From contig OY969696.1 of NCBI GenBank assembly GCA_963702005.1, positions 1,504,001 through 1,568,000 of the forward strand: a DNA stretch of 64,000 nucleotides, given 5' to 3'. This document shows positions 23,723 through 42,438 of the stretch, in pieces (within the stretch, counting starts at the first letter, position 1; each line of letters starts with the position of its first letter). The notes below the pieces were generated by a model, which did not search any database, was not told where the DNA came from, and worked only from the letters and a program-made list of their open reading frames with translations. This DNA comes from Candidatus Aminicenantes bacterium (GTDB lineage Bacteria; Acidobacteriota; Aminicenantia; Aminicenantales; JAFGBC01). Both the position numbers and the translations under genes were made by a program.

Positions 23723-25019
23723 GAAAATTATCGGAATGATACGGCTGAGAAGCGAATTGTCGTTCTATAACGCCTCTCGGCTTTGTATATTTCTTTCTTG
23801 AAAAATCGATTATTTCCTCTTTATGAGAAGTATTGATTTCTCTGAGCCGTATGGTAACGGCGCTGAATGGCCGCGAAGTCACGCCGTCAATCATGAGCTT
23901 GAGGCAGATATGGAAATTGGGGAGGTTAATTAAGTCGGCTTCTTCAAATACGGGCTCAAATTCCTGAGCAAGATATTTTGCATCCTCAGCCCCGATTCTG
24001 AAGGATATGATCGTCCCGACATTCCCGAAGATCGCCGCCCTTATTTTTTCGTCCAATTGCTCGATATACTGATGGGCGAGAATAAGGTTCAAGCCGTACT
24101 TCCGGGATTCGGACATAATATCGGCAAAGGAGAGGGTTATGAAGCTGTGGATTTCGTCCACATAAAGATAGAACGGCGTTCTTTTCTCTTCCAGTAAATC
24201 TGCCCGGCTCAGCGCGGCTAACTGGATTTTGGTAAGAACCAGAGCGCCCAAAAGAGAGCAGTTGTCTTCACCGATCTTTCCTTTGGCGAGATTGACGATG
24301 AGAATCTTTCCTTCATCCATGGCTCTGCGGACATCGAAGGTATTTTCTTTCTGGCCGACTATGTTTCTAAGCGGAATGCTGACCAGGAATTGGCCGATTT
24401 TATTGAGTACGGGCGAAATCGCTTCTGACCGCAGCCAGGCGGAATATTTCTCAAACTCTGAGAGCCAGAATTCTCTGACCTGGGGATGGGTGATGTAATT
24501 GAGGACATTCCTTCTGAAATCCTTATCCAAGAGAAGCTTGGGCATGTCGAGAAGCGTACTATTTGGATATTCGAGAAGCGTGAGCAGGGCGTGCCGGAGA
24601 ATATGTTCCAATCTCGGCCCCCAGGATTCAGACCAAATCTTTTTGAAAGTCGAGATGATTCCCGAAGCCACAAGATGATGAAAATCTTTGGGGACTTTTT
24701 CCAGAGGATTAAATGCTATCGGATATTCAAGATCAGCGGGATTGAAGTAGATGACATCCTTAATTCTTTTTTTAGGAACGTAGTCCAATATTTCTTCCGC
24801 TATATCGCCGTGAGGATCGATAAGAGCTAAGCCACAGCCGTGCTTGATATCAGAGATCGCCATGTTCTCCATTAAGCTTGATTTTCCAGTGCCGGTCTTG
24901 CCGATGATATACATATGGCCTCTACGGTTTTTCTCTTTGATGCCGAAGATTCTTTTAATATCCCTGTAGTCGGTCACGGCAAAGGGGGTGATGCGATTGT
25001 TCTTATGAGAATCAGTCAT
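23700..25019 (-). CDS. TraD/TrwB-like (type IV coupling / HerA-FtsK) ATPase
   Basis: HMYIIGKTGTGKS, IDPHGD, WGPRLE, LYVDE, ESRKYGL..AHQY. Confidence 0.85.
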   Translation of the reverse strand: MTDSHKNNRITPFAVTDYRDIKRIFGIKEKNRRGHMYIIGKTGTGKSSLMENMAISDIKHGCGLALIDPHGDIAEEILDYVPKKRIKDVIYFNPADLEYPIAFNPLEKVPKDFHHLVASGIISTFKKIWSESWGPRLEHILRHALLTLLEYPNSTLLDMPKLLLDKDFRRNVLNYITHPQVREFWLSEFEKYSAWLRSEAISPVLNKIGQFLVSIPLRNIVGQKENTFDVRRAMDEGKILIVNLAKGKIGEDNCSLLGALVLTKIQLAALSRADLLEEKRTPFYLYVDEIHSFITLSFADIMSESRKYGLNLILAHQYIEQLDEKIRAAIFGNVGTIISFRIGAEDAKYLAQEFEPVFEEADLINLPNFHICLKLMIDGVTSRPFSAVTIRLREINTSHKEEIIDFSRKKYTKPRGVIERQFASQPYHSDNFHGQQLSF

Positions 25020-25078
25020 ATATTTTCAGCATAAGCCGGCAAAATATTGAATAAAAGACAGGAAATTTCCACTTTTTC

Positions 25079-25100
25079 GGCAATTTCTCCCGTCTTGTAT
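25079..25100 (+). promoter_or_regulatory. Putative operator/promoter motif, copy 1
   Basis: GGCAATTTCTCCCGTCTTGTAT; related copies at 36963-36984 (-) and 41932-41953 (+). Confidence 0.45.
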
Positions 25101-25159
25101 GTCTCTGTCCGTGCGCTAAGCTTGAAGTAGAACTTTAAAATTTAAAGGAGTAAGGAGAA

Positions 25160-25534
25160 ATGAAAGACAAAGCAAGACGGCTGGAACTCAGAACTGCGGA
25201 CGGCAAGGTTATCCTCGTTCTCTATCTCTCCGAGGAGATAGCTTTAGAGGATCAACCGAAGGCGAAGGAAAGCCCGAAACCGGACGCCGGTAAGTCCAAG
25301 CCTCAAACGAGCGCTCCGTCATCCGAGAATCCTCCGATGACAGATGCCCAGAAGCGCTACCTTTTCAGAATCATGGCTGAGAAAGGCTACGAAAACGACA
25401 AAGGCTACGCCAAGCTGAAGGAGCTTTTCCAGGTCGATTCTCTGAAAGAGGTCACGAAGCTTGAAGCTTCGCGGATGATCGAACGGCTTCTCGACGAAGC
25501 AAAAGGCGAAAACCATGACGCCGTACCTTTCTAG
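25160..25534 (+). CDS. Hypothetical protein
   Basis: AGGAG RBS; PMTDAQKRYL..TKLEASRMIERL motif common in phage/MGE proteins. Confidence 0.65.
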   Translation: MKDKARRLELRTADGKVILVLYLSEEIALEDQPKAKESPKPDAGKSKPQTSAPSSENPPMTDAQKRYLFRIMAEKGYENDKGYAKLKELFQVDSLKEVTKLEASRMIERLLDEAKGENHDAVPF

Positions 25535-26282
25535 CTCTCAGATCAATCTTTATCTGCTTTGCGGTCTGAAGTACAAATTCCAGTACATTGACGAGATCCC
25601 GAAACGCTTCAAATCTTCAGGATTGGCTTTTGGCAGCGCTATCCATTCGGCTCTTTCCTGGTATCACAAGCAGACGATGAACGGAAACGGAGTGACGATT
25701 GACCGGTTGCACAAGATTTTCGACGCTGACTGGTACAGCCTGAAAACGGAAAACGAGATTCGCTTCAAAGAAGGGGAAGAAGAGATGAAGCTCGTCGTCC
25801 TGGGAAAAGAGATGCTGGCTCAGTATTTTGATCTGCCGAGAAAAAAAATCAAAGGTACGGAGATTCCGTTTTCTGTCCCGCTTATCAATCCTGAAAACAG
25901 CAAGTGCGCAGCCATCGAGCTTGAAGGCGTGATCGATTTGATCGAGGAGGACGACACCATCACGGAATTCAAGACTTCGGCCCAGACCATGGACTCTCAG
26001 GAGCTTGGAAACCACGTCCAGCTGACAATCTACAGCTACGCTTTCGAAAGGATCAGCCACAAGCCGCCCAAGTCCTTAAAAATCGTCAACTTCGTCAAAT
26101 CCAAGAAGCCGAAGATGATTCAGATGGACACGAATCGAGACAACGACGACTATCAGCGGCTCTACTTCCTGGCCGGACAGATCCTCAAAGGAATTCAGCA
26201 GCGCATCTTTTTCCCGAGAACCGGATTCCTTTGCAAAGACTGCGAGTACGCGGAGAACTGCAAAATGTGGAAGGGGAACTAG
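25515..26282 (+). CDS. PD-(D/E)XK nuclease, RecB/Cas4-like
   Basis: LSSSQINLY.LC, GSAIH, GVIDLI..EFKT, QLTIY, CKDCEY..C. Confidence 0.85.
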   Translation: MTPYLSSSQINLYLLCGLKYKFQYIDEIPKRFKSSGLAFGSAIHSALSWYHKQTMNGNGVTIDRLHKIFDADWYSLKTENEIRFKEGEEEMKLVVLGKEMLAQYFDLPRKKIKGTEIPFSVPLINPENSKCAAIELEGVIDLIEEDDTITEFKTSAQTMDSQELGNHVQLTIYSYAFERISHKPPKSLKIVNFVKSKKPKMIQMDTNRDNDDYQRLYFLAGQILKGIQQRIFFPRTGFLCKDCEYAENCKMWKGN

Positions 26283-26303
26283 CTCATTTTCTTCCAACAA
26301 AGC

Positions 26304-26335
26304 AAGGAAGCAGGCAATCCTGCTTCCTTTTAATA
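26304..26335 (+). terminator. Intrinsic terminator
   Basis: AAGGAAGCAGG-CAAT-CCTGCTTCCTT followed by T/A-rich tail. Confidence 0.7.
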
Positions 26336-26406
26336 TTTTACAGGGTTTTCTAAATGTGCTAACATTTAAAAAAAGGGTTGATTATTAATTTTGGGCATTA
26401 ATAAAC

Positions 26407-29298
26407 ATGGCACAAGAAATGCTCTTCCCAGAAGGATCAAAATGGAGAAAATGGGACCTTCATATTCATAGTCCACTTTCTATACTTAATAATAAATATC
26501 CAAAATCTGCCAGTGGCAAGCCGGACTGGGGAGGCTTCATAGATAAACTAGAACGCTCGGACCTAGCTGTAATTGGAATTACAGACTATTTTTCTATCGA
26601 AGGCTATAAAAAGGTACTGGATCTTAAGAATAATGAGAAGAGATTATCGAACATATTCACCGTGCTTCCGAATATTGAATTTAGACTCAACAGTGTATTG
26701 TCTAGTAAAAAAAACGGGAGACATCCTCGAAGATTAAACTTCCATGTGATTTTTTCAGATGAGGTCTCTTGCCGAGACATCGAGGAGCATTTTTTACACG
26801 ATCTTCTTTTTTATTATGAAGGGAACCCTCAAGATAAAGACGAGAGACGAAAATTGAAATTATCTAATCTTAGGGAATTGGGGGCGAAACTCATATCTCA
26901 ACATAGCGGATTTGAAGGAAAGGATGCGCTTGAAGTTGGCGCAACGTGTGCAGTGGTCAACCATGAAGATATAACGGAAATTCTGAGTGGGGATAGCAGA
27001 TTTAAAGGGAAGTACATAATAGTTTTTCCTGAAGACCTATTCAGCCTGATAGATTGGGATGGACAGGATCACCATATAAGAAAAGGGGTGCTTCAGAAAT
27101 CGGATATGGTTTTTTCTTCTTCTCAAAAAACGATTCAGTGGTGCCTTGGGAAACCACCTTATCAGGAAGGCGAAAAGAAGTTTATTGAGGAGTTTAAGAC
27201 CCTGAAACCATGTGTTCACGGCTCTGACGCGCATCAAATTGAGGAAATTGCGGCTCCTTGTGCAAAAAGAGGAGAGCCGGATCATAAATGCGGAGAGTCT
27301 TCTTCAAAGTGCGAGATGAGGTACTGCTGGATCAAAGCTGATCCGATATTTGAGGGATTGAGACAGTTGCTTTATGAACCAGAAGAAAGAGTTAAGATTC
27401 AAGAAGATGACCCCACGCCTTCAAGAAGCAATATAACGCTGTCAAAAATCACCGTGCCGGGATCAGAAATTAATGAAGAGCTATCAATAGCTAAAACGGA
27501 AATAGATCTAAATATAGGCTTAGTGGCTGTTGCAGGAGGAAAGGGCACTGGGAAAACAGCCTTTGTTGATTTGATTGCGAATTGCTTTCAAGATCGCGTT
27601 AATACAGACGACAAGAACTCATTTGTGAAAAGAATAGTTGACCAAAAGCCTGATCTGGATGTTGAACTAGACTTTAAAAATAATATAATTTTCAAGAAAA
27701 AGATTAGGGATGATTCTTATTTCCAGGAGGGAGAGATATTATATATTGCCCAGGGCGAGCTCGAGCATTACATCGGAGAAGGATCTGATCTAGACAAGTA
27801 TGTAAATAATTTAATATTTCTTAATCCTAAGATCATAAATTCACTACAAAAATACGAATACTCGAAGATGGAAGCCGATCTCAAGGAAATAGAAGCGAAG
27901 ATACAAAAGAAGTCTGAGTCAATAGAGCGGCTAGAACAAGAAACTGTAAGTGCTGTTCTACGAGACGCCGAAATAAAAGAAAAACAGCTTCAGAATTCCC
28001 TGAGAGATATAAATCAGCGATTAGCTGAATTAGAAAAAAAGCTTAGTATCGATAAGGTAAAAATCGCCAAAGAAAAACAGGGAAGAATGGCTGAGTTAAA
28101 AACGAAAAAGGAATTATATGTTGGATTGAAAGAACAAATTGGATTAGCGATTAGTTTTTTTGATGAAGAATTAGTTGGATTAAATACGATAATAAGAAGG
28201 ATAAATAACATCCTCGAATCATTGGGGATCCCCGAAAAATATCCTGAGATTAATTATGCTGATCGCAGCAAATTGATAGAGCGGTCAAACCAAACCGATG
28301 GAATAGTTACGAAAATTATTGGAGAAATCGAAGTAATTCAAAAAGAGATAAACAAGTATGAGATTGGCATTCAAGATCATGCATCTCTGCTCAACAAGAA
28401 GAAAGACATAGAAACCTCAATAGAGAAAAGCAATACGAGGCTAAAGAACCTTGCTTTTAAGAAGACAAAGTTGTCTGAAGATATATTACAGAGAAAGAAC
28501 CTCTTCAAGGATATGATCATTGCAGTAGTGGCTCTAAAAACTAAATATGCAGAAGTTATAAAATTATTTTCCTCTCAAAAAGCCATAGTACTCTCCGATA
28601 TTGAATTCATCGCCGAGATGACGTTTGACGCTGAAGGTGTCTTGAAAAACGCAGAGGATGTATTAGATAACAGAAAGGTGATTGTCTACCCTGAAGGAGA
28701 TGGTTGGGTTTTTAAAAGAATGATAGAAATATATGGTCAAATAACGGCCGGAGATACAACAAAGGCTGACGAATTGGTTGAGGAAGTTGAGCGTCTAAAT
28801 AATGAATTGAAACCTAAAATTAAATCCTCAAGTGCAGTCAATGTGGGAGATTTCTATAAATTCTTATATACGAATTATTTAAATGTTCTTCCTGTCGTTA
28901 AGTATAAAAATACCAGGATCAATAAATTGTCGCTTGGACAAAAGGCGACAGTGCTTATAAAAATATATTTAGCTGAAGGAGATAATCCAATTATTATAGA
29001 TTCACATGATGAACACCTGGATAATGCGTATATCATGGAAGAATTAACAGGGTCGATTAGAGAAGCTAAAAAATATAGACAAGTGATCATGGTTTCAAAC
29101 AATGGCAACATAGTGGTAAATAGTGATGCGGAACAATTGATAATAGCGGAGCGGAATGATGAAGGAGAAATATCTTATATAGCTGGGTCAATCGAGAATC
29201 CTACCATACGAGAGAAAGCGATAAAAGTCTTAGAAGGCGGGCCGGAGGCATTTAAGAAACGACAGCAAAAGTATCGTATCTCTGGCTCAGCATTCTAA
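26407..29298 (+). CDS. PHP-domain + ABC/SMC-like ATPase (TrlF/Ppl-like, putative anti-phage)
   Basis: WDLHIHSP, ITDY, GSDAH, WIKADPIFEGL, GGKGTGKT, coiled coil, LSLGQ, LEGGPEAF. Confidence 0.8.
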   Translation: MAQEMLFPEGSKWRKWDLHIHSPLSILNNKYPKSASGKPDWGGFIDKLERSDLAVIGITDYFSIEGYKKVLDLKNNEKRLSNIFTVLPNIEFRLNSVLSSKKNGRHPRRLNFHVIFSDEVSCRDIEEHFLHDLLFYYEGNPQDKDERRKLKLSNLRELGAKLISQHSGFEGKDALEVGATCAVVNHEDITEILSGDSRFKGKYIIVFPEDLFSLIDWDGQDHHIRKGVLQKSDMVFSSSQKTIQWCLGKPPYQEGEKKFIEEFKTLKPCVHGSDAHQIEEIAAPCAKRGEPDHKCGESSSKCEMRYCWIKADPIFEGLRQLLYEPEERVKIQEDDPTPSRSNITLSKITVPGSEINEELSIAKTEIDLNIGLVAVAGGKGTGKTAFVDLIANCFQDRVNTDDKNSFVKRIVDQKPDLDVELDFKNNIIFKKKIRDDSYFQEGEILYIAQGELEHYIGEGSDLDKYVNNLIFLNPKIINSLQKYEYSKMEADLKEIEAKIQKKSESIERLEQETVSAVLRDAEIKEKQLQNSLRDINQRLAELEKKLSIDKVKIAKEKQGRMAELKTKKELYVGLKEQIGLAISFFDEELVGLNTIIRRINNILESLGIPEKYPEINYADRSKLIERSNQTDGIVTKIIGEIEVIQKEINKYEIGIQDHASLLNKKKDIETSIEKSNTRLKNLAFKKTKLSEDILQRKNLFKDMIIAVVALKTKYAEVIKLFSSQKAIVLSDIEFIAEMTFDAEGVLKNAEDVLDNRKVIVYPEGDGWVFKRMIEIYGQITAGDTTKADELVEEVERLNNELKPKIKSSSAVNVGDFYKFLYTNYLNVLPVVKYKNTRINKLSLGQKATVLIKIYLAEGDNPIIIDSHDEHLDNAYIMEELTGSIREAKKYRQVIMVSNNGNIVVNSDAEQLIIAERNDEGEISYIAGSIENPTIREKAIKVLEGGPEAFKKRQQKYRISGSAF

Positions 29299-29990: not shown

Positions 29991-30161
29991 GCAGCACCCT
30001 TAACTGATTTTCTCTCCATTGCTTCGCCATTGTCAATTCCTTTACTGAGTCTTTCTATGTGCTAGATTAAAAGTATACCAACCAGTCAATCCTTATCAAT
30101 TGATAAATTCTTGGCTCAAATCTATTATTGACTCCGGCTTTCAGTTGATACATCCAGCGCT

Positions 30162-30275
30162 ATGAACTGTCTCCTCTACGCCCGTGTCTCCACGGACAAA
30201 CATGTTCAAAAAGACCTATCTATCCTGCCCCCGATCGATATGAGGGAACACTTTGCTGAAGAGTCCGGCCTTTAA
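30162..30275 (+). pseudogene. N-terminal fragment of a third serine recombinase
   Basis: MNCLLYARVSTDKHVQKDLSI.. then stop after 37 aa. Confidence 0.65.
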
Positions 30276-30322
30276 TCACCTCTTCAAATTCGGGATCATA
30301 GCCTCTTTATTAGTCTCGAAAA

Positions 30323-30380
30323 AGGTTCTAACGTCCTCTACTGCGGTGTACTAAAATTGCCGAAATAGGCAAAAATTCCC
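30323..30380. repeat. att-like repeat C (LSR2 cassette junction)
   Basis: AGGTTCTAACGTCCTCTACTGCGGTGTAC (25/29 to 35076-35104), then TAAAATTGCCGAAA-N4-CAAAAAT-CCC. Confidence 0.8.
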
Positions 30381-30511
30381 TTCTTGTGTGAAGCATTATT
30401 TTAAATGAGTTAAAATGCGAGAATCACGCTACAACAGATAGATATTGGGAGGGCGGTAGTTTCCCCGTTTCCCCCTTTACTTTGTATTTATTTGTTATAT
30501 AATCAAAATAT

Positions 30512-31039
30512 ATGAGCCGATTAGAACAATTTCTATTATTTGTCCTAGACAGAGCTCATAGGATCGGAATTAAAGACCTATCCCGTTTTCAGTTATTCAA
30601 GATATCCTATATTATTCAGGTACTGTCTTTAAAATACGCTGGTAAAGAATTTATCCCGAATTTAGTATTCGTTAGGCATAAACATGGACCGATATCTACG
30701 GATATATATCATGCGATAGATGATTTATATAAGAAAAAATATATTAGTAGAGAAATTAGTAAGAAAGAAGACTATGAATTTGCCCGTCATGGCCATAAAT
30801 TAATCAAGAAAATCCCCAGATTGAACTTTAGTAAAGGGGAAACTGTTTTTTTGGATAATTTTCTGTCGGAGTTATTGCCGTTATCTCAAAATAAGTTGAA
30901 ACAATACGCTTACACAACCGAACCGATGAAAGAAATCTTGAAAAAGGAAAAAGGCGAGATTAAGACAGGAGTAGTTATTGATTTTTCAACCGTTATTGTT
31001 GATCCAGATGTCGTAAATAGCTATGCTGACGAATTATGA
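30512..31039 (+). CDS. Panacea/SocA (DUF4065)-like antitoxin
   Basis: QLFKISY..FVRHKHGPIS..AYTTEPM. Confidence 0.65.
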   Translation: MSRLEQFLLFVLDRAHRIGIKDLSRFQLFKISYIIQVLSLKYAGKEFIPNLVFVRHKHGPISTDIYHAIDDLYKKKYISREISKKEDYEFARHGHKLIKKIPRLNFSKGETVFLDNFLSELLPLSQNKLKQYAYTTEPMKEILKKEKGEIKTGVVIDFSTVIVDPDVVNSYADEL

Positions 31040-31461
31040 GTTTTTCTGTCGGCGACATTCCCTTTTTTAAAGAATACCAGTTTACTGATACTGGACGATT
31101 CGCCCCTCATTTTGGGCTAGTACTTCTACCAGAAACCGCGACTAAATATCAGAATAGTCTTTTGTGTTGTGTAATTACCTCACGTGAACCTAAAAGAATC
31201 AAATGGAGTTTATTGTTGGAATGTTCCAAATATAGTTGTTTTTCGAAAAATAGTCATGCTTGTTTCGATAGAAAGGACCTCGTTTCTAAGAGCGGCCTCG
31301 GAGATAATCCTCAACCTAAAGCGCGACTGTGCGTGGATGATCTTAAGAGAGCTTATAAAATATTAAGAAGCTCTCTTTTTGTCATAAGAGATATTGCGAA
31401 TGATCCTTATATGCGAGGCGTAATTATTTATGAGTGGAAGAAGGCACTGGGGAAAAACTAG
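31036..31461 (+). CDS. Putative toxin, PemK/MazF-like fold
   Basis: VGDIPFF.EYQFTD....PH.GLVL..CCVITS; ATGA-coupled to the antitoxin. Confidence 0.5.
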   Translation: MSFSVGDIPFFKEYQFTDTGRFAPHFGLVLLPETATKYQNSLLCCVITSREPKRIKWSLLLECSKYSCFSKNSHACFDRKDLVSKSGLGDNPQPKARLCVDDLKRAYKILRSSLFVIRDIANDPYMRGVIIYEWKKALGKN

Positions 31462-31514
31462 TTGAATTTTGTCCCAGGATTACGCATCGGACTCTCTAAC
31501 GTTTGATTTGAAAT

Positions 31515-31571
31515 AAGTTCTAACGTCCTCCACGGTGGTGTACAAAATTGCCGAAACAATCAAAAATACCC
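31515..31571. repeat. att-like repeat B (LSR2 cassette junction)
   Basis: AAGTTCTAACGTCCTCCACGGTGGTGTAC identical to 35076-35104, then AAAATTGCCGAAA-N4-CAAAAAT-CCC. Confidence 0.85.
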
Positions 31572-31747
31572 GCCTTGCTACGGAGAGTAGGTTTTTATAA
31601 TTAATAAGTAAGATTAAGAAAATCGTTTGTGCTTAATTATAAGAAATAGGGTGTGGATAAATAACCTCTTGACAATATAAGTTACATAAGATATCATTCC
31701 CAATATGGGAACATATGCTAATGTAATATATTGTTCCACGGTAAGAA

Positions 31748-32035
31748 ATGAAACTAATAGGAAAATCAATATTAGACGAATTCAAACAAAAGCATGCCGA
31801 TGCTCGACCACAAATTGATTCTTGGGAAGCAGAAGTTAAGGAAGCAGAATGGAAAACCCCGCAGGATCTCAAAAACAGGTATCCCAAGGCTAGTATTTTA
31901 AGTAAGCAGCGTGTTGTTTTTAATATTTATGGAAATAAATATAGATTGCTAGCACTAGTCACCTATAAGACAGGAGTAGTATTGGTAATTAAAATAGGAA
32001 CGCACAAAGAATACGATAATTGGGTAATAGATTAA
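31748..32035 (+). CDS. higB: HigB-family toxin
   Basis: W..P.DLK.RYP.AS..RVVFNI.GNKYRL..IGTHKEYD. Confidence 0.9.
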   Translation: MKLIGKSILDEFKQKHADARPQIDSWEAEVKEAEWKTPQDLKNRYPKASILSKQRVVFNIYGNKYRLLALVTYKTGVVLVIKIGTHKEYDNWVID

Positions 32036-32051
32036 GATTAGGCAAAAAACT

Positions 32052-33266
32052 ATGAGCAAAATCAAAGTTATTAAAACAAAAAAAGACTACGAAGATGCAC
32101 TCAAATTAGTCGAAGTGCTAATGAGTCATGATCCCGACCCAGATTCAGAAGAAGGGGAACAGCTCAGTCTTCTCAGCACGCTTATTGAAGATTACGAAAC
32201 TAAGGTATTTCCAGAGACATTACCTAATCCTATTGATGCGATCAAATACAGAATGGAACAAATTGGGCTTAAACCAGCCGACCTCATACCATACATTGGC
32301 AGCCGAAGCAGAGTATCAGAAATTCTTTCAGGCAAACGTCAGCTAACTCTTGAGATGGTAAGAGCGCTAGAAGCTGGTCTTGGAATTCCCGCAAAAGTGT
32401 TAATTAAGAAACAGGAGCTGGACGAGAATCTCGATTATCAGAATTGGGACAATCGTTTACTAGCAGAATTGGAAGCACGTGGTTATTTCGGCAGCTATTC
32501 CATAAAGAAATATAATAAAGATGAACTTCTTAAAAACTTCTTTGCGCCAATCGGATCTCCTGCGCAGCTCGTCGGGATGCTACGAAAATCTAACTACAGA
32601 TCTTCGCCACTTACTGATAAGCGCGCGTTAAGCGCTTGGGCCGCTTGCGTGCTTAGAAAAGCGAATAAAATAAGAGTATCTGAGAAATACAGACATGGGT
32701 TCGTAAATTCCACGTTTATGCAGGAATTAGCAAAATTAAGTGTAAAAGGTAACGGACCAGTTCTAGCTCAGGAATTATTGAAAAAAGGGGGAATCAAATT
32801 GGTGATTGAACCTCACTTCCCCAAAACATACCTAGATGGAGCAACAATTCTTATCAACAAAGATAATCCGGTTATCGGATTAACCTTAAGATATGATCGA
32901 TTGGATAACTTTTGGTTCACAATGATGCATGAATTAGCGCACATAGCCTTGCATTATGACAGTGGCATTAATCTTTTTTATGATGAGATTGAGGGGATAA
33001 AAACGATCGATATAGATGAGAGAGAACGAGAAGCTGACGCATTAGCTGAAGAAACTCTTTTACCAAAGGCAAAATGGGAGATCAGCCCAGCCAGATTAAT
33101 TCCTTCTTTTATGGCAGCAAACAGTTTGGCCAATGAGCTTGGAGTACATGTAGCCATCATCGCCGGCCAAATCAGGCATAAAGGCAATAAATATATCTAC
33201 CTAAACAAAATTGTAAATGGGGCAAAAATTAGAAAATATTTTCCTCATGAAAAATGGAATAAATAA
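32052..33266 (+). CDS. higA: HigA antitoxin fused to ImmA/IrrE metallopeptidase
   Basis: PIDAIKYRMEQ..GSRSRVSEILSGKR; DRLDNFWFTMMHELAH; EREAD. Confidence 0.88.
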   Translation: MSKIKVIKTKKDYEDALKLVEVLMSHDPDPDSEEGEQLSLLSTLIEDYETKVFPETLPNPIDAIKYRMEQIGLKPADLIPYIGSRSRVSEILSGKRQLTLEMVRALEAGLGIPAKVLIKKQELDENLDYQNWDNRLLAELEARGYFGSYSIKKYNKDELLKNFFAPIGSPAQLVGMLRKSNYRSSPLTDKRALSAWAACVLRKANKIRVSEKYRHGFVNSTFMQELAKLSVKGNGPVLAQELLKKGGIKLVIEPHFPKTYLDGATILINKDNPVIGLTLRYDRLDNFWFTMMHELAHIALHYDSGINLFYDEIEGIKTIDIDEREREADALAEETLLPKAKWEISPARLIPSFMAANSLANELGVHVAIIAGQIRHKGNKYIYLNKIVNGAKIRKYFPHEKWNK

Positions 33267-33267
33267 T

Positions 33268-34347
33268 ATGTTTGATTCAAAACATTACGTGCCAATATTA
33301 AAATGGAAACGCGCCGAGCAAGGCGCGCTAAAGGAATTGGAAGAAAAACATAAAAGGATTATAACTCCTTTAATTCAATTCGTAATGCCGAAAAACAAGC
33401 CAGAAGACAAGCTTGAAGATGTTATTGCAAGATTTGATGGTCAATTAGCCGAAATACCAGGAAAAATAATTGATATCTGGGGCAAGTCCCCGATCTTTAT
33501 TGGTGTTAATTTGTTATATTCTACATCCCTGAAAGAAAAAGCTCTCGATGTTATTTCACATGGAGGGCATAAGCTCGGAGGTATTTTTATTCCCGTTATA
33601 CATCTTAATGATGACGAGAAGATTAAGAAATCAGCATTGAATGTCGCAAAAGAGACTGGGAGCGGCTTATGTGTAAGATTAATATGTTCTGATTTTTCCG
33701 ATATAACGAAATTAGATCACGATATTGGTAGCCTTCTTTCATTCGGATTAAACGAAAACGATATCGATCTATTAATTGATATCAAAGAAACCGAAAAAGA
33801 TGAGGAAAAATACGCTAAATATTTCAATTTGAGTCAAAAGGTTCCCAATCTAATGAAGTGGCGAACATTAATATTTGCCAGCGGATCATTTCCCGAAGAT
33901 TTATCTGAGTGTAAAGTTGATGAAGAAAATCTTATACCACGCAACGACTGGAAAAGTTGGAAAGAATGTATTGGTAAAAAGTTGCAAAGAAAACCAACCT
34001 TCTCGGACTACACTATTCAGCATCCTATTTACAAAGAAGCTGTCCAATTTTATCACCCGACTTCAAGCATTAAATATACATTAAAAAATGAATGGCTGAT
34101 TATGAAAGGTCAAAGGCAAAGATTTGAACAATATTTGGCACATGCAGCTGAGCTGGTAAAGGATAAAAGATATTGTGGGGAAGATTTTAGTAATGGTGAT
34201 AAATATATAGCCGAAAAGGCAAAACATTTTTATGTATATACAAAGAATCCCGCCATCAAGGGTACGGGAAGCACAGAAACTTGGCTTAAAGCTGGCCTTA
34301 GCCACCATTTAGTATTAGTGGCGCATCAGGTCTCCACTCTGGCCTGA
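33268..34347 (+). CDS. Beta-family protein (T4 beta-like)
   Basis: YVPILKWKRAE, ASGSFP, FSDYTIQHP, IKYT..W, SHHL. Confidence 0.75.
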   Translation: MFDSKHYVPILKWKRAEQGALKELEEKHKRIITPLIQFVMPKNKPEDKLEDVIARFDGQLAEIPGKIIDIWGKSPIFIGVNLLYSTSLKEKALDVISHGGHKLGGIFIPVIHLNDDEKIKKSALNVAKETGSGLCVRLICSDFSDITKLDHDIGSLLSFGLNENDIDLLIDIKETEKDEEKYAKYFNLSQKVPNLMKWRTLIFASGSFPEDLSECKVDEENLIPRNDWKSWKECIGKKLQRKPTFSDYTIQHPIYKEAVQFYHPTSSIKYTLKNEWLIMKGQRQRFEQYLAHAAELVKDKRYCGEDFSNGDKYIAEKAKHFYVYTKNPAIKGTGSTETWLKAGLSHHLVLVAHQVSTLA

Positions 34348-34924
34348 AAAATATTTTATCTCTTACTTTTTTTCCAAGAGTTTCTTTGTCAAAATAAATG
34401 GATAATTTTTCATAAATACAGTCTCTAGGCTTTGAATAGAGACCGATGGCTTTACCAGCCTCTTCTAAGATCTTCAATGCCTCTTCTCTCCACAAGAGCC
34501 TGGCAATAGAAATTCCATCCTGTTCTTTATTATTTTCTCCCTCTCGGATGAGATTAAAGATTACTGAGCCGTTAAGATCAATCTTGGCAACCGTGATACC
34601 CCACCAATCAGGCACCATGTTTATTGCATTATATAGATGACTTTTTCCGACTACCAAAGTGACCTTGTCGAACACAGCATTAAAAATATTCATCTGTTCT
34701 GGTAATCGTTGTAATGTATCTTGATCGCTCTTTATTTCATAACCGTGCATCATTCCATTAACAACAGCAATATCAATTCTTGAAGTGCCATGGTTGACAC
34801 CCAATTCTTCAATTATTCGTAATTTCTTATCTTGGGCGTGACGCTTTTTTAAATCCTCCATTAAGGCGGATCGTATAATCAAATCGGTTGTTGGAAGATT
34901 CTTCTTCGAATTGTTTTTCTTCAT
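34298..34924 (-). CDS. sce7726-family PD-(D/E)XK-like protein
   Basis: RIDIAVVNG..HGYEIKSDQDTLQRLPEQ..FDKVTLVVG..PDWWGI. Confidence 0.8.
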   Translation of the reverse strand: MKKNNSKKNLPTTDLIIRSALMEDLKKRHAQDKKLRIIEELGVNHGTSRIDIAVVNGMMHGYEIKSDQDTLQRLPEQMNIFNAVFDKVTLVVGKSHLYNAINMVPDWWGITVAKIDLNGSVIFNLIREGENNKEQDGISIARLLWREEALKILEEAGKAIGLYSKPRDCIYEKLSIYFDKETLGKKVRDKIFFRPEWRPDAPLILNGG

Positions 34925-35034
34925 AATTTATGTTTCTTTTTTTAAGTATAACATAAGATAAGACAGAACAACATATAGGATGACATGACCGACATGGCTT
35001 TATATCTTGTTGGAAATAATATCTTTTGTTAGAA

Positions 35035-36648
35035 TTAAACAAACACTTCTTCCGATTGGGGCAGTTTTTCATAAAAAGTTCTAACGTCCTCCACGGTGGT
35101 GTACCAGGAAAGAAATTGGGAAGTGGAGAGGTCCGATTTAGCTTCAAAAATGGCGTTTTTCGGAGATTCGAGCGTATTGTTTCTCCTTCGGACTACCATT
35201 AAGCCTTTTTCGATAATTTGGAGCGGTTTTTCAAGCCGAATTTCGAGTTCTTTATCTTTCAGAAAAAGGTTCGAGCCGAGTTCTTGGAGGATCGTCCGTT
35301 TGTCTTCCAAGGAGCCGTTTTGGAAGTTCTTTTTAGCCCGCGCTGCGAAAATGAAGGTTTCCGCAGTAAGATCGAGCGAGCGTTTTATCGGGTCCTCCAT
35401 TAAGCTTCTTTCTAGCCGGGCTCTTTCTTCTGCGAGCCGTTTCTTCTCTTCGACATATTCTTCGTCGTTGATTAAATCCTTGAGCCTCATCTGGTTCAGA
35501 TTAGCGAGTCGCTTCTCGCAATCGGCAAGGGCTTTCTCCAATGATCGCCGAACATTGTTTTCTTTTTGATGTCCATCCTTTTCTTCTTCGCGCAAATACT
35601 CGAAAGCTAAATCGAGAAGCGTTTGGGGAACGTGGACATTTTCCAGATATGCGGCGACCTGGCTTTCGAGGACTTTCAATTCGATATATTTCTGATGACA
35701 ACGCGGCCCGTGTTTCTTTTTTGTACAATGATAATAAGTGTAGTGATAGCCGTATCTATTGATTTTCTCCTCTGCTGTAATCATACAACCACACTCAGCG
35801 CATCTGATCAGGCCGGTAAATGCGAATTCATGGGTCTTCGGCCTTGGCCTTCCGCGCCGCCCGAGAATGTCTTGAGCTTTCCAGAATTCATCTTCGGTAA
35901 TCATAGGCTCGTGCTTTCCCGGATATGTGCCTTCTTTTCTCTCCATAAGGCCGTAGTAAAAAGGATTTCCGAAGATTTCATAAATTCCGCTCATACTCAA
36001 CGGCTTGCCGCCGATTTTATTCCCTTGTCTTGTCCTAAAGCCCCATTTATTGTTTGCGATATCGAGTATCTTGGAAGGCGAAACTCCTTTTAAAAGAAGC
36101 TCCCACATTCTGCGGACGATGGGGAAACGCTTCGGATCTATGACAATCGTTCTTTCTTTCGGCTCATTGAGATAGCCTAAAGGCGGGAGAGAAGGAAGCC
36201 AGCCCCTTTCGAGTTTCGCCCGAAGTCCTCTTTTCACGTTATCGCTCAGGTCGTCCACATACTTTTTCGCCATACCGAATTCGATTTGCATTAGGAATTT
36301 ATCGTTGCTGTTGTTCTTAAAGCTTCCATGCGGCGTTTGAATATCGGATATCTTGCCTTGATCCAGAGCCCAGACCAGGGCCGCGCCATCTATCGGATTT
36401 CGGGCTAAGCGATCAAGCTTCCAGCAGACGATCCCTTTGTATTGGCCCTTATAGAGTTTTTTCATCATATCGTTAAAGATCGGCCTGCCGGGAGATTTGG
36501 CAGATTTAGACTCAGTAAGAATATCGGAGATCGGAAGGCTCATTCTTTTGCCGAACTCCTCCAATTCCTTGATTTGGGAGTCGATTGATAAGACCTGTTT
36601 TTCTTCTGATTCCGTAGATTTACGACAGTAGAGAACATATTGGGACAT
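35035..36648 (-). CDS. Large serine recombinase LSR2
   Basis: YCRKSTESEEKQ, WKLDRLARN, PLGY, HEPMIT, GLIRCAECG, YYHCT; ends WYTTVEDVRTF. Confidence 0.93.
   Translation of the reverse strand: MSQYVLYCRKSTESEEKQVLSIDSQIKELEEFGKRMSLPISDILTESKSAKSPGRPIFNDMMKKLYKGQYKGIVCWKLDRLARNPIDGAALVWALDQGKISDIQTPHGSFKNNSNDKFLMQIEFGMAKKYVDDLSDNVKRGLRAKLERGWLPSLPPLGYLNEPKERTIVIDPKRFPIVRRMWELLLKGVSPSKILDIANNKWGFRTRQGNKIGGKPLSMSGIYEIFGNPFYYGLMERKEGTYPGKHEPMITEDEFWKAQDILGRRGRPRPKTHEFAFTGLIRCAECGCMITAEEKINRYGYHYTYYHCTKKKHGPRCHQKYIELKVLESQVAAYLENVHVPQTLLDLAFEYLREEEKDGHQKENNVRRSLEKALADCEKRLANLNQMRLKDLINDEEYVEEKKRLAEERARLERSLMEDPIKRSLDLTAETFIFAARAKKNFQNGSLEDKRTILQELGSNLFLKDKELEIRLEKPLQIIEKGLMVVRRRNNTLESPKNAIFEAKSDLSTSQFLSWYTTVEDVRTFYEKLPQSEEVFV
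35076..35104. repeat. att-like repeat A inside the LSR2 3' end
   Basis: Encodes YTTVEDVRT; similarity to copies B and C stops exactly at the palindrome GTAC. Confidence 0.85.
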
Positions 36649-36712: not shown

Positions 36713-36934
36713 TTATTCTTTCAGCTTATCATCTTTTAAATGATCGTCAAATAAACGAGGCCCGGACAAAGCGTTTGCCCGGCTGCTAGTCGAAGGTTCT
36801 TTAAGAATCACCCTCAATAGATTAACCAGCCTAAGAAATTTCTCGTAGGCCTGGCTGTCGGATATTGTCTCGTTAAACTCATCCTGATAGATTTTCTTGA
36901 ATTCTTCGATTGTTTCCTTGCTTGGACTCATCAA
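36713..36934 (-). CDS. Small protein upstream of LSR2
   Basis: SKETIEEFKKIYQDEFNETISDSQAYE; co-oriented with the recombinase. Confidence 0.65.
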   Translation of the reverse strand: MMSPSKETIEEFKKIYQDEFNETISDSQAYEKFLRLVNLLRVILKEPSTSSRANALSGPRLFDDHLKDDKLKE

Positions 36935-39228: not shown

Positions 39229-39825
39229 ATGCGGAATAATATGTCAAATTTTAAATGTGGATCGTTCACGAGCTCATCTAGAATTGTCCCTTATCTGTTG
39301 TCGGATGAGGTTCAGAAGCTGGCCGCAGAAGCAGGAAAAAGGCGGAATGGAGAACGAGATTGTCTGTTTATTTTGCTTTTATATCAAACAGGGTTAAGGA
39401 TATCTGAGGCTTTATCTTTAACTCCAGCTAAAATTGATCAGTTCGATGGAAAGCCGGTCCTAAACATTATTGGGAAAGGCAACAAACCCCGCCTTGTCTC
39501 CTGCCCGCAAAATCTGGCAGGAAGAATGGCCGCCTATGGAAAGAAAATGGATCTGAATGCCCATGACAGATTCTTCCCCTTTAACAGAATACGCGGTTGG
39601 CAGATAATCAAGACGGCTGCGGAAAACGCGGGATTTCAAAAGAGAATTTTTCCGCATCTTCTAAGACATTCGGACGCAATTGAAAGATTGAGGCAGACGG
39701 GAAATCCCAAGGCCCTTCAGCACCACCTGGGCCACTCCTCGATTTCCATGGTGATGAGATATCTTTCAACTTTAACCCAGGAGGAGTCGTTGAGGATTCA
39801 GCAGAAAGTGGAATTTAAGAAATAG
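39229..39825 (+). CDS. Tyrosine recombinase, catalytic domain only
   Basis: TGLRISEAL, GKGNKPR, HLLRHS, HLGHSS...RY. Confidence 0.88.
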   Translation: MRNNMSNFKCGSFTSSSRIVPYLLSDEVQKLAAEAGKRRNGERDCLFILLLYQTGLRISEALSLTPAKIDQFDGKPVLNIIGKGNKPRLVSCPQNLAGRMAAYGKKMDLNAHDRFFPFNRIRGWQIIKTAAENAGFQKRIFPHLLRHSDAIERLRQTGNPKALQHHLGHSSISMVMRYLSTLTQEESLRIQQKVEFKK

Positions 39826-39931
39826 AGTTAATATTAGCCTTGGAATTTAAAAGTATATATTAAATTGCTCAGTTGTTTAAAAAAATCCTTGACGAATCCT
39901 AAATATGCCCCGGCGACTTGTAGCGAGTTGA

Positions 39932-40573
39932 TTACATTTTTTGACAAACAAATGTGACACGATGATCAAGGTATATTCTTTGCTTGAATTGAAAACTGGC
40001 TTTTTCTGCATAGTTCATCAACTCTTCTAATGTCATATTTTTATAAAATGTATAATAATTTCCTCTGGACATTATATAGCCATCCTCATAGGGTTTGGCA
40101 GTTTTTACTATATTTCTATAGTAAGTTTCATTAGAGGGTACATCTATAAAAATAAAGCCTCTCTTTTTTAAGTTTCGATGTACTCCATTTAAAAGTTCTA
40201 TCCTTTTTGTAATCAAGGGAAGTATATGCAAGACATTAATTATTATTGCACCATCAAGTTGTAGTTCTTTATTTAGAAAAGACTCGACATCCATAAATTC
40301 TTTATATGAAGAATAGATAGACTTTAAATCATCTAGTTTATTCTTGATACGCTGATATTGAGCCTTTGTATCAACTAATATAACAAATGGGAATGAATCG
40401 AGAATGTGAGGAGTATTGGCTAGTAAGCCACATCCTATTTCGGCAACTTTATTTAAGTTTTCTTGTTTGAAGGCTTCTGTTGCTGCCTGAACAGCTCTAG
40501 ATGGTCTAAAAGGATATTGTGCTGCAACTGCTGAATATTCAGGATTTATAATGATTTTATTCTTTTTAAGCAC
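39932..40573 (-). CDS. Class I SAM-dependent methyltransferase-like protein
   Basis: VAEIGCG, INVLHIL, LKKRGFIFI. Confidence 0.65.
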   Translation of the reverse strand: MLKKNKIIINPEYSAVAAQYPFRPSRAVQAATEAFKQENLNKVAEIGCGLLANTPHILDSFPFVILVDTKAQYQRIKNKLDDLKSIYSSYKEFMDVESFLNKELQLDGAIIINVLHILPLITKRIELLNGVHRNLKKRGFIFIDVPSNETYYRNIVKTAKPYEDGYIMSRGNYYTFYKNMTLEELMNYAEKASFQFKQRIYLDHRVTFVCQKM

Positions 40574-41303
40574 TATGACTCCTCTTATGAATTAAGGGAC
40601 AGTACTTACGGCATCCAATTCGATAATCGGGGAGTCTTTTTTTTAATGTTTGTTTATCCTGTGTTAATATCCTTTTTGTCTGTGCGTTGGCAGGATAAAT
40701 GAGCCTTTTTTTTGTTTTATAATGGAGCACATAAAAAGGAACAGGCAATATAAGAGATAATATGAAACTTAAATGAAGAAATTTACATAAATGTTGAGTA
40801 ACGCAAATAATAATGACGTATATTAGTGCTATTATAAAACCAATTGTAGAAAATACGCTTAAATTTGTTGAGACAAAATAATCTCCCCAATATTGAAAAG
40901 CTCGATGGCGTTCGGTATCATTGTCAGGAATAAAAGTATAAAAAAGATCCATCAACTTGCTTTCCTCATCCTTTAAAATACCTCTATCAGCTATTTTGCA
41001 TTTTTGATCCTTACAAGGTTTGGTAAGTTGCTCTCTAATAAAATTGTTAATCCTCTGTCTTTCTTTAAATATTTTTTTATCAAACCAATTATGTATATCA
41101 AAAATAATAAAATATGAAGCAAATGCAATAAGTGCTAACGGTACAATCCAAATAATAAGTGTGGCCTTAGAGTGAATATCAATAATAAAAATACTAAGCC
41201 ATTTAGGAAATATCAAATAAATTAACAGTATGAAGTATACTCCTATTATGAAAGCGGTAGCTTTTTTAATTTTATTTTTCATTTTTTCAAAAGGATCAGC
41301 CAT
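40566..41303 (-). CDS. Hypothetical 4-TM membrane protein
   Basis: Two pairs of hydrophobic helices; overlaps both neighbours. Confidence 0.65.
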   Translation of the reverse strand: MADPFEKMKNKIKKATAFIIGVYFILLIYLIFPKWLSIFIIDIHSKATLIIWIVPLALIAFASYFIIFDIHNWFDKKIFKERQRINNFIREQLTKPCKDQKCKIADRGILKDEESKLMDLFYTFIPDNDTERHRAFQYWGDYFVSTNLSVFSTIGFIIALIYVIIICVTQHLCKFLHLSFILSLILPVPFYVLHYKTKKRLIYPANAQTKRILTQDKQTLKKRLPDYRIGCRKYCPLIHKRSHSA

Positions 41304-41703
41304 TATTCTCTTTTACCTCCTTAATATTGTAGTATCTGCATAGGTAATGGTCTTTTTCAGAAAATTCAATAAAGCCTGAGATCTTTTCTTTTAGAAAAAT
41401 AGTGAAGTTTGTATACTCATTCTTAAAAACTATATGGTCAATTATTCCTTTTCGAAGTAATATTGCCCTTTTTTTTACTCCGATTTCCCAAATAGCAAAA
41501 ATCGCTTCAGTTCCAGATTTTATTTTTCTAGATTTTATTTGCTTAATAACAAGAGGATGAATATAATTTACAAAATAACCCCAGCTCATCCATTTAACAT
41601 CGGAATTATTTAATATATTTTTTACATAATGATACGGGCCTCTTGAACATACTCCCATTATAAGAATTGGAGTTTCAGTGCTGTTATTTTGTTCTTTTCT
41701 CAC
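41296..41703 (-). CDS. Hypothetical protein
   Basis: 135 aa ORF, first of an overlapping three-gene unit. Confidence 0.5.
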   Translation of the reverse strand: MRKEQNNSTETPILIMGVCSRGPYHYVKNILNNSDVKWMSWGYFVNYIHPLVIKQIKSRKIKSGTEAIFAIWEIGVKKRAILLRKGIIDHIVFKNEYTNFTIFLKEKISGFIEFSEKDHYLCRYYNIKEVKENNG

Positions 41704-41931
41704 TTTGAAGTATCTCTATGGACATTTTAGATAAAATCTTGGCTTTATTAGATGCTCTAATATTTTTTAAGTTCATACTCCTTTAAGAAAATGTTTTGTT
41801 CCTCCCCTTTATTCACTTTATAACAAAAATTTTATGTTTATTCAATTGAAATCTTTTTTCTGCTAATTTTAAGTGGTTTTCTAATTTTATCCCCATCTTC
41901 TCCACAATTGATATCAAAAATTGCCTTTTAG

Positions 41932-42435: not shown

Positions 42436-42438
42436 TTT

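Follow-up and report, generated by a model that had tools for sequence, protein, structure and literature searches.

A large serine recombinase gene with an apparent attachment site in its own coding end, and a tandem array of defence units beside it

Relation to known systems

ICEs and CIMEs accrete in tandem and site-specifically at tRNA genes or gene ends, and in SCC the half-site held in common sits in the coding end of the target gene. In staphylococci, SCC and SCC-like cassettes line up one behind another, flanked by repeats, at the end of rlmH, and the large serine recombinases CcrAB mobilise them (PMC11470126). A serine-recombinase array of such form is thus described, contrary to what a first-pass annotation of the present DNA supposed. 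The locus considered here lies in the window, by which is meant the whole 64,000-nucleotide stretch analysed from a Candidatus Aminicenantes bacterium (GCA_963702005.1, contig OY969696.1, positions 1,504,001 to 1,568,000). It is like SCC, as that source portrays it, in having what would be serine-recombinase-driven tandem units at one gene's 3′ end with direct repeats that restore that end, in that some units have no recombinase of their own and would depend on one acting in trans, and in a cargo rich in anti-phage defences (PMC11470126). It differs in that the docking gene is the recombinase's own rather than rlmH (orfX), in having one recombinase gene and not a CcrA/CcrB pair, the enzyme here, LSR2, scoring far below the NCBIfam Ccr cut-offs (CcrB 89 of 900 bits, CcrA 76 of 700, CcrC 62.8 of 900), and in unit size, 0.3–9.8 kb across the arrays described below against 24–68 kb for SCC. 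By analogy, the closest known counterpart is SCC tandem accretion and not the integron.

How integron-like is it then? That was the term used in the first-pass annotation, and as to geometry it stands: the docking site is beside the recombinase, capture would be serial with the newest unit nearest, the cassettes have no recombinase, and the cargo is of defence and toxin–antitoxin (TA) type, defence cargo being also carried by chromosomal integrons (bioRxiv 10.1101/2024.07.02.601686). As to parts it does not stand. The enzyme beside the docking site is a serine recombinase and not a tyrosine recombinase of IntI type; the sites appear to be double-stranded arm/core/tail sequences in contrast to the hairpins of folded single-stranded attC; and each unit has several genes and signals of its own, most run antisense to the recombinase, and there is no Pc-type promoter logic.

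The ‘suicidal’ SSV-type tyrosine integrases carried by viruses and plasmids of archaea also have their attachment site within the recombinase gene, which integration splits; the review cited places such enzymes only in archaea (PMC8371274). Integration there leaves the gene in large pieces, whereas here only about 23 C-terminal codons would be exchanged. The present family is moreover bacterial and of serine type, and array genes are always re-completed. With the canonical phage serine integrases (A118/LI, phiC31, Bxb1) the family has its domain make-up in common, as it does the length of the attP half-site, about 25 bp, and a ZD motif which, as reported for LI integrase, lies closer to the centre by 5 bp in attB than in attP (PMC3783163). 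Unlike them, attP here overlaps the enzyme's coding end, and many members target the 3′ end and T-arm of tRNAs of many isotypes. The array sites also have one half-site in common; because canonical enzymes are described as rejecting attP with a site that has the same P′ half (PMC3783163), the body/tail by arm/tail pairing proposed below would be non-canonical. Tycheposons are likewise site-specific, in some cases with large serine recombinases, and have tandem repeat junctions and cargo modules, 910 of 937 using tyrosine recombinases (bioRxiv 10.1101/2020.12.28.424599). No tycheposon, ICE or CIME is described as docking in the recombinase gene.

The recombinase gene and its repeat sites

The proposed docking gene, that of LSR2, is intact and on the minus strand (35035–36648; 537 aa). 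Its product has the make-up of a large serine recombinase, with a resolvase catalytic domain containing the nucleophilic serine, and Recombinase and four-cysteine zinc-ribbon domains, the Pfam matches all being above cut-off (Resolvase, residues 5–149, 2.4e-21; Recombinase, 4.8e-10; Zn_ribbon_recom, 1.6e-10). All invariant columns of the family alignment (A1) are present, R9, K10 and S11 included, and the zinc-ribbon cysteines C283, C286, C308 and C317 are invariant in it. We infer that LSR2 would be the catalyst at the sites described next. Just upstream, on the same strand, is a conserved 73-aa ORF (36713–36934), matched by no Pfam or NCBIfam family, whose phmmer relatives adjoin the recombinase in 33–38 of 99 other loci, depending on the query; nearly all of these relatives share its strand, and most are upstream of it by no more than about 300 bases. 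The 73-aa ORF is a candidate accessory or directionality factor. A 198-aa tyrosine recombinase (39229–39825, plus strand; Pfam Phage_integrase 4.7e-23), a rival enzyme, is 2.3 kb past this partner, divergent from it, and 2.6 kb from LSR2.

Read directly, sites A (35076–35104) and B (31515–31543) are the same plus-strand 29-mer ending in GTAC, and site C (30323–30351), also plus strand, matches A at 25 of 29 positions (4 mismatches); A and B are 3561 bp apart, and B and C 1192 bp. The recurrence, orientation and unit lengths noted earlier were thus found again on rereading, and with up to 7 mismatches allowed A, B and C are the sole copies in the genome (4,309,361 bases searched). What is on either side of GTAC? 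At A, where GTAC is 35101–35104, the recombinase body is to its right and tail A to its left. At B (31515–31572, the arm being 31544–31572) and C (30323–30381, arm 30352–30381), both read on the plus strand, there is instead to the right a common sequence, AAAATTGCCGAAA-N4-CAAAAAT-N-CCC, absent at A and unlike the recombinase body. In a whole-genome search its 27-nt consensus occurs at B and C only. The arm GGGWWTTTTTGNNTNTTTCGGCAATTT adjoins the core not only at B and C but also at the second tail in a related locus (L015) from a Dehalococcoidaceae MAG whose recombinase is 78% identical to LSR2. By eye the sites read as tail, GTAC and arm, with an arm stem of at most 4–5 bp.

Read in frame with the recombinase, each of the three copies remains open until a stop is reached after 20–24 codons, as YTTVEDVRTFYEKLPQSEEVFV at A, YTTVEDVRTYFKSNVRESDA at B and YTAVEDVRTFFETNKEAMIPNLKR at C, the orphan tails being open for lengths similar to those of gene-linked tails. 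The family motif V-E-D-V-R-T is encoded by all three, and 2 of the 4 changes in C relative to A are synonymous. Tail A (35035–35103, minus strand) is the last 23 residues of the recombinase, and the frame of tail B, also on the minus strand, is open to a stop near 31470. Tail C (30276–30351, minus strand), which has the 25 of 29 match to A, resembles the native tail of L015 also beyond the 29-mer (..VEDVRTFFETNKEA.. and ..VEDVRTFFETNREA.. respectively), and from its sequence is likely to be the original gene end. Back to back with its stop is the end of a 37-codon N-terminal fragment of another serine recombinase (30162–30275, plus strand; MNCLLYARVSTDK...), which marks the distal end of the array.

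The units and their cargo

Unit 2 (31544–35075; 3561 bp including tail A) has three adjacent plus-strand genes that match the PADLOC models PD-Lambda-2_A (31748–32035; 1.5e-39), PD-Lambda-2_B (32052–33266; 4.1e-141) and PD-Lambda-2_C (33217–34347; 1.2e-40), and 31748–34347 is accordingly a predicted PD-Lambda-2 anti-phage system; a minus-strand sce7726-family gene (34298–34924; NCBIfam sce7726_fam 6.9e-48) follows. The Pfam domains of this unit are HigB_toxin, HTH_3 with Peptidase_M78, and Beta_protein. Unit 1 (30352–31514; 1192 bp including tail B) encodes on the plus strand a Panacea-domain antitoxin (30512–31039; Pfam SocA_Panacea 2.7e-09) and, overlapping its gene, a 141-aa ORF (31036–31461) with no family in Pfam, NCBIfam or PADLOC, presumed to be the toxin of the pair. 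The gene content is as first assigned (higB, higA-ImmA, beta protein and sce7726, all matched in Pfam or NCBIfam; Panacea, matched in Pfam, with a presumed toxin), and a profile search of both units gave no recombinase-like stretch, as would follow from the earlier statement that neither has an integrase of its own. The units are multi-gene and mostly point away from the recombinase.

The crossover point of the family

Of 95 family loci examined, 33 have a recombinase ORF that reads on into a tRNA gene in antisense, entering it at its 3′ end; 11 isotypes are represented. Homology to intact-tail members stops where the window's tail starts (alignment A1). The tRNA-integrated relatives show this break point to be a crossover site of the family. 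In five elements (L017, L073, L078, L087 and L111, of which L073 was not called tRNA-fused by ARAGORN in the 95-locus count) a split-off V/I-x-D/E-V/I-R-T tail is 4.6–10.3 kb upstream, at the element's other end, and has a 5–9 nt core in common with the recombinase/tRNA junction; the flank in L111 is the terminator of the tRNA itself. In 5 of 5, TTMGAAC (in L111 the variant TCCGAAC) stands closer to the core on the tRNA side than on the tail side, by 5 bp, which is the attB/attP rule reported for LI integrase (PMC3783163). It tells against the account proposed below that, where 5 kb or more of upstream sequence was available, an upstream tail at a score of at least 10 was found in only 4 of the 18 tRNA-fused loci. 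Sequence comparison leads to the conclusion that the family recombines at a crossover point in its own gene.

A proposed route to the array

How could such an array be built? The attachment site of the LSR2 family would lie within the gene for the enzyme itself, some 23 codons ahead of the stop, with crossover in or beside GTAC, 16 nt 5′ of the GAC-GTT-AGA-AC(T) codons for D-V-R-T; the last codons would then also serve as the P′ half-site, and TTAGAAC within them looks like the zinc-ribbon-domain motif. A circle with arm, core and tail would recombine with this intragenic site, converting body/old tail to body/new tail, cargo and arm/old tail, in that order. With every insertion the enzyme would acquire a fresh, functional C-terminal tail, earlier tails and units would be pushed downstream, and the newest unit would therefore be nearest the gene. 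In the window, tail C would be the original, unit 1 with its Panacea pair would have brought tail B, and the later arrival of unit 2, with PD-Lambda-2 and the sce7726 gene, would have brought tail A. LSR2, perhaps aided by its 73-aa partner, would act in trans to move the recombinase-less units. As the tail half-site would be identical in substrate and product, the reaction would be reversible without change of site type. Serial integration of this kind, newest nearest, is the account we favour and regard as reasonably probable; that there are circles, and the order of the insertions, we infer.

More tentatively, and with some doubt, the self-attachment codons (V-R-T as GTT-MGA-AC) may copy the tRNA T-arm, one branch of the family having become a reversible platform that captures defence and TA cassettes and rewrites its own C-terminus. 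If the mimicry is real, almost any tRNA gene could offer the enzyme a docking site at its 3′ end; if the platform is, it would be a counterpart of the integron built on a serine recombinase, with cassettes that carry a spare tail and a conserved arm.

Assembled metagenome contigs of at least 90% likeness favour serial integration. One (X2 record 9) matches unit 2 (31635–35104) with 74 differences and past GTAC has TA and 29 nt of arm, then unlike sequence which is not recombinase, the short side of this joint, at 29 letters, being under the tool's caution limit of 30. An X1 contig matches the tail to 35105 and then becomes arm-like (CAAATTTGCCGAATTAGG), and another (X9 record 30) departs from the window at 35099. 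Two more (X1 record 2 and X6 record 17) cover the arm end of unit 2 and continue unlike the window's unit 1, through a variant of site B in which arm–core spacing differs by 8–9 nt. On the other side, the arm motif was met with at three assembled sites and two contig ends only. Among these contigs no circle or empty junction was seen, and the arm-plus-tail pattern was in 0 of 400 other sampled genomes of the phylum and in no viral contig searched.

Arrays in relatives and other explanations

Besides the window there are 30 intact-tail loci, 20 of them with at least 2 kb downstream. One or two extra downstream tails are present in 7 of the 20 (L015, L020, L026, L042, L075, L079 and L088; L079 has three tails in total), with different cargo. 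The comparative test put forward in the first-pass annotation for LSR2 homologues thus came out positive; overall, its interpretation is partly supported. Similarity starts sharply in each of the seven, 16–20 nt before GAYGTT. Cargo across the arrays includes PD-Lambda-2, Panacea TA, AbiEii/AbiEi, methyltransferase with a dCTP-deaminase-like protein, UvrD-like helicase, HIT with 2′-5′ RNA ligase, an IS200-like transposase and transporters. In the distant arrays (L020, L075, L079, L088) the arms are unrelated and resemble terminator-bearing flanks.

Are the units relics rather than cassettes? Whole elements may have inserted in tandem at a resident's intragenic site (attP × attP), with later decay of the downstream recombinase, in which case there would be no cassette class. 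The L026 unit has, between tails 1 and 2 and directly before the second, a decayed second recombinase (49% identical over 348 residues, coiled-coil region lost, stop about 50 codons ahead of tail 2), and because of it units may be descended from whole elements. Two same-strand recombinases are 3.5–5.8 kb apart in L029 and L082, and the repeated tails of L020, L026 and L079 are alike past the stop codon too, as expected of a true gene end. However, the 40 nt before the L026 junction are a hairpin and not coding, the 27-nt motif at B, C and the second L015 tail is unlike any recombinase body, and there is no recombinase-profile match in the window's units. The first-pass concern about relics of integrase-bearing elements applies in part, to L026. 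We consider decay of whole elements unlikely as the general origin. On that explanation the docking site would be unchanged, only the origin of the units being different.

Serial capture of circles has also to be set against LSR2 being a mere neighbour, the arm/tail sites being attL (B/P′) of present or past downstream elements that repeatedly hit adjacent targets. Flank/tail is exactly the left junction in tRNA-integrated relatives, the arms of L026, L075, L079 and L088 have terminator-like hairpins as those flanks do, and the 37-codon recombinase fragment adjoins tail C. Yet that fragment, at 30162, is in the wrong orientation, the 5.9–8 kb available beyond the last tail in each of L026, L042, L079 and L088 yielded no second recombinase, and two regularities would go unexplained, namely an intact same-orientation recombinase with a near-identical tail always upstream, and 0 of 30 intact-tail loci with an upstream tail. 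The chance that it is right seems slim.

Slightly slimmer is the chance that the 3′ end of the LSR2 gene served a tyrosine recombinase, that at 39229–39825 or a lost one, as a target for inserting the units, as tRNA genes do, the repeat being the restored end. One-sided identity blocks of 27–139 nt at the junction are usual for tyrosine systems, and 4 of 8 arrays (the window, L020, L026 and L042) have such an enzyme near the recombinase, in the last three a related one directly upstream. Against this, the 10 kb searched upstream of L075 and the available sequence of L015, L079 and L088 gave no such enzyme, that of the window is but a remote relative of the L020 type (E about 1e-6), and 0 of 5 two-junction relatives match either tyrosine-recombinase query in available locus sequence; moreover the junction is the crossover of the tRNA-integrated relatives, and the motif shift of 5 bp seen in them is a signature of serine integrases. 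Local duplication or chance, without any site-specific event, has in its favour only the shortness of the repeat and is scarcely credible, given 2 window matches to the 29-mer at up to 3 mismatches against 0.00 expected (100 shuffles), and the same architecture with the same junction codon in 7 unrelated metagenomic loci.

The three sites and the end of the recombinase gene

LSR2, the gene at 35035-36648 (-), encodes a 537-aa large serine recombinase with the Pfam domains Resolvase, Recombinase and Zn_ribbon_recom, and the recurrence of part of its 3′ end, claimed in the first-pass annotation, was borne out. Site A (35076-35104, within the gene) and site B (31515-31543) are identical 29-mers with GTAC at their end, site C (30323-30351) agrees at 25 of 29 positions, 0.00 matches to the 29-mer are expected by chance, and a search allowing up to 7 mismatches gave no fourth copy in the 4.31-Mb genome. 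To the right of GTAC, site A continues into the body of the recombinase; sites B and C continue into a common arm, of which the genome has no further copy elsewhere. As all three copies are open in the recombinase frame, with the C-terminal tails YTTVEDVRTFYEKLPQSEEVFV (A), YTTVEDVRTYFKSNVRESDA (B) and YTAVEDVRTFFETNKEAMIPNLKR (C), each closed by a stop codon, copies B and C can be regarded as spare gene ends. Between A and B is unit 2 (3561 bp), and between B and C unit 1 (1192 bp).

Sites B and C share their 27-nt arm with L015, a locus encoding a recombinase 78% identical to LSR2, where it likewise adjoins the core, at the second of the tails; more distant arrays have different arms. A search with just the arm through five genomes with LSR2 relatives (L015, L016, L018, L020 and L026) gave a single exact match, at the known L015 site. 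The combined arm and tail pattern occurs in none of a sample of 400 other genomes of the phylum, by which its absence there is not implied, and viral contigs contained neither the pattern nor an LSR2 relative. The arm search also returned two 2-mismatch matches in G043. In the window itself, 25060-25086 (+) is a 27-nt stretch that differs from the arm consensus at 4 positions and includes TTTTTCGGCAATTT; it is opposite in orientation to arms B and C, has no tail after it, and is probably due to chance.

Relatives at tRNA genes and the point of crossover

The relatives of LSR2 (34-78% identical; 19 loci from species genomes and 80 from metagenomes) carry labels as diverse as Dehalococcoidaceae, Nitrospira, Gemmatimonadaceae, Acidobacteria and candidate-phyla MAGs. 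None of 40 genomes from the same order encodes a close homologue (best 31% identity), which leaves no empty site for comparison and means that the gene was acquired horizontally. The C-termini in the family are of two main kinds. In 30 loci the gene ends with the motif present in the window, x-V-x-D-V-R-T-F-F, and in 33 of 95 examined loci the reading frame continues into an antisense tRNA gene, entering at its 3′ end, with 11 isotypes involved; in the recombinase alignment, homology between the two kinds ends where the window’s tail starts. In a more distant subgroup (L101, L103, L105, L109, L110, L067 and L028) the last 39-97 nt of the gene have a perfect inverted copy, in most of these seven loci upstream of the gene start; the arrangement may be that of an invertible segment, or of an attP whose inverted arms are very long, with the copies of L109 and L028 being at a contig end and so possibly an assembly artefact.

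Where is the tail that the tRNA-type genes lack? A tail-profile search located it 4.6-10.3 kb upstream on the same strand in five loci (L017, L073, L078, L087 and L111), including L017 where a blastn search for direct repeats around the junction of recombinase and tRNA had been empty. Each of these split-off tails is joined to the host flank via a core of 5-9 nt which is also present at the recombinase:tRNA junction, and in L111 the flank is the tRNA’s own terminator. Integration therefore occurred at tRNA 3′ ends with crossover inside the recombinase gene, and the layout of these elements is flank joined to tail, cargo, and recombinase body joined to tRNA. At a score of at least 10 an upstream tail is present in only 4 of the 18 tRNA-type loci whose upstream sequence reaches 5 kb or more, a count made with a profile built from the other, intact-tail subgroup and among elements that may exceed the flank length searched.

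In all five elements TTMGAAC, which is the V-R-T codons in the tail and the antisense T-arm in the tRNA, is separated from the core by 5 bp less in the tRNA half than in the tail half. The same displacement has been published for a serine integrase, whose attB half-sites differ from those of attP in this way (PMC3783163). The agreement is good evidence that this recombinase family acts on the window’s GTAC region. The T-arm-like zinc-ribbon-domain motif, displaced between tRNA and tail, lends the structural model for attP/attB discrimination independent confirmation from natural sites and, because the tail marks them, the family’s natural att sites can be read directly from genomes. In the left half-sites (recombinase body, arms and tRNA flanks) no consistent mirror image of the motif was apparent by eye.

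Recurring arrays and their cargo

Further tails in direct orientation are present downstream in 7 of the 20 intact-tail loci that have at least 2 kb of downstream sequence (L015, L020, L026, L042, L075, L079 and L088), and upstream in none of the total of 30. In every array the similarity between gene-linked and orphan tails starts abruptly 16-20 nt before GAYGTT, and the orphans stay open for roughly the same length as their gene-linked counterparts. L079 has three tails in one array, at 3298, 3570 and 7455, of which the middle one follows the first by ~270 bp with homology over ~35 residues (..GDVRTFL...IANIRKIL..), and so units can be nearly empty. The cargo varies: in the window, unit 2 has a complete PD-Lambda-2 system (PADLOC: component A 1.5e-39, B 4.1e-141, C 1.2e-40) together with a gene of the sce7726 family and unit 1 a Panacea-domain pair, and elsewhere there are AbiEii/AbiEi (L042), a methyltransferase with a dCTP-deaminase-like protein (L015), a UvrD-like helicase (L026), HIT and 2′-5′ RNA ligase proteins (L079), an IS200-like transposase (L088) and transporters (L075). 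Neither units 1 and 2 nor their proteins have a match in the 99 other loci, and no locus has the terminal overlap of a circular contig.

Contigs of four public metagenome runs (X1, X2, X6 and X9), possibly from other strains or species, were compared with the window at 90% likeness or more; X1, X6 and X9 are sediment metagenomes in which the locus occurs, and among the public runs none contained over one third of the 7-kb stretch. Record 9 of X2 (3835 nt) matches unit 2 over 31635-35104 and, past GTAC, has TA and 29 arm-like nt, a short side under the caution limit of the method, followed by sequence unlike the window and with no recombinase. A contig of X1 follows the tail to 35105 and continues as CAAATTTGCCGAATTAGG, a third arm variant, and record 30 of X9 departs from the window at 35099. 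On the arm end of unit 2, X1 record 2 and X6 record 17 have a variant of site B beyond which they are unlike unit 1 for 2576 and 322 nt, respectively. These joints are hints that unit 2 and its type of site occur in other contexts, and do not amount to proof of movement itself. Record 21 of X6 was dropped as a bridge of site A as just 21 letters are within the recombinase body. Unit 1 was nearly uncovered in X1, X6 and X9, and the contig depths of recombinase and unit 2 varied from run to run; under the rule of the method, such holes and depths do not count as evidence and were left aside.

How the array may have been built

A circle in which an arm is joined to a first tail would, on inserting where the recombinase body is joined to a second tail, yield body with first tail, unit, and arm with second tail. 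Such insertion is the favoured reading, being the only simple site-specific history that would give that order. On balance it is probable that the units entered the recombinase gene serially, the newest nearest to it and the tail swapped each time, with LSR2 as the presumed catalyst; the preference reflects the failure to see traces predicted by the alternatives, an upstream arm with tail or a downstream junction of recombinase and target. Both partners share the tail half-site; recombination would hence leave the site type unchanged, from which reversibility is predicted. Phage integrases pair attP strictly with attB (PMC3783163), a rule to which the proposed pairing does not conform. Directly upstream of LSR2 is a 73-aa ORF of no known family (36713-36934 (-)), whose relatives are similarly placed in 33-38 of the 99 other loci, depending on the query, and are present in both tRNA-type and intact-tail members; it may be an accessory or directionality factor, and the encoded protein may serve the proposed reaction in the former role.

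Did the units always lack a recombinase? They may be descendants of whole elements that docked at the same site. At the end of the L026 unit is the decayed gene of a second recombinase (identity 49% over 348 residues), which has lost the coiled-coil region and has a stop ~50 codons ahead of tail 2; with the same-strand recombinase pairs of L029 and L082, this means that whole elements can dock there, though the non-recombinase arm shared by B, C and L015 argues for a distinct non-autonomous form, at least in that lineage. Two other histories, entry of LSR2 and its upstream genes into a target already consisting of arm and tail, and tandem whole elements at an ordinary attB, were set aside, as each predicts one of the two traces just mentioned and neither was seen. 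For the other end of an LSR2-borne element, no further tail was found in the genome (29-mer, up to 7 mismatches) or by profile in the window to 64000, and no further arm in window or whole genome, so that the first of these histories is unsupported. That a tyrosine recombinase moves the units is very improbable: one is near the recombinase in the window (39229-39825), L020, L026 and L042, but none was found in the sequenced parts of L015, L075, L079 or L088, or in any of the five tRNA-type elements.

Relation to described systems

Insertion of successive units at one gene end by a serine recombinase has a precedent, and the initial supposition that no serine-recombinase array of such form had been described fails: SCC and SCC-like arrays, the nearest described system, are in tandem at the 3′ end of rlmH, involve Ccr serine recombinases and are defence-rich (PMC11470126). 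In contrast to SCC, the docking gene here is that of the recombinase itself, and every event would swap the recombinase C-terminus. Archaeal SSV-type tyrosine integrases, restricted to archaea according to one review (PMC8371274), are known to have their att sites within the integrase gene; for a serine recombinase with an att site in its own gene, a word search of open-access text found no report. If LSR2 does move the units, it would be a compact one-enzyme collector of anti-phage and toxin-antitoxin modules at a defined site, such collection would operate in lineages distant from staphylococci, and the known routes by which defence genes are pooled and exchanged would become wider.

Surroundings of the array

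A serine recombinase other than LSR2 is represented at 30162-30275 (+) by an N-terminal fragment of 37 codons (MNCLLYARVSTDK...), which ends back to back with the tail C stop codon. A fragment 58% identical to it (DNA 82% over 91 nt) is at 9463-9645 of L018, upstream of the partner ORF and recombinase and in the other relative orientation, and contigs of X1, X6 and X9 matching 30161-30351 diverge just ahead of the fragment’s start codon. A second, distantly related large serine recombinase of 501 aa (5518-7023 (-)) is on LSR2’s strand 28 kb off, with 26% identity to it over residues 46-213. To the left of the array, 20884-29298 is a mobile and defence-like neighbourhood with an IS200-type transposase (20884-21327), DUF932 (22162-23145), a coupling-protein-like ATPase (23700-25019), a PD-(D/E)XK nuclease (25515-26282) and a 963-aa TrlF-family AAA-like ATPase (26407-29298; NCBIfam 1.4e-144). 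To the right of LSR2, 39229-43425 encodes the short tyrosine recombinase (198 aa), a methyltransferase and an HTH_36 protein, and also has a weak match of RuvC-like type. As close relatives of the HTH_36 protein are near the recombinase in L015, L016, L021 and L049, it may share an element backbone with LSR2.
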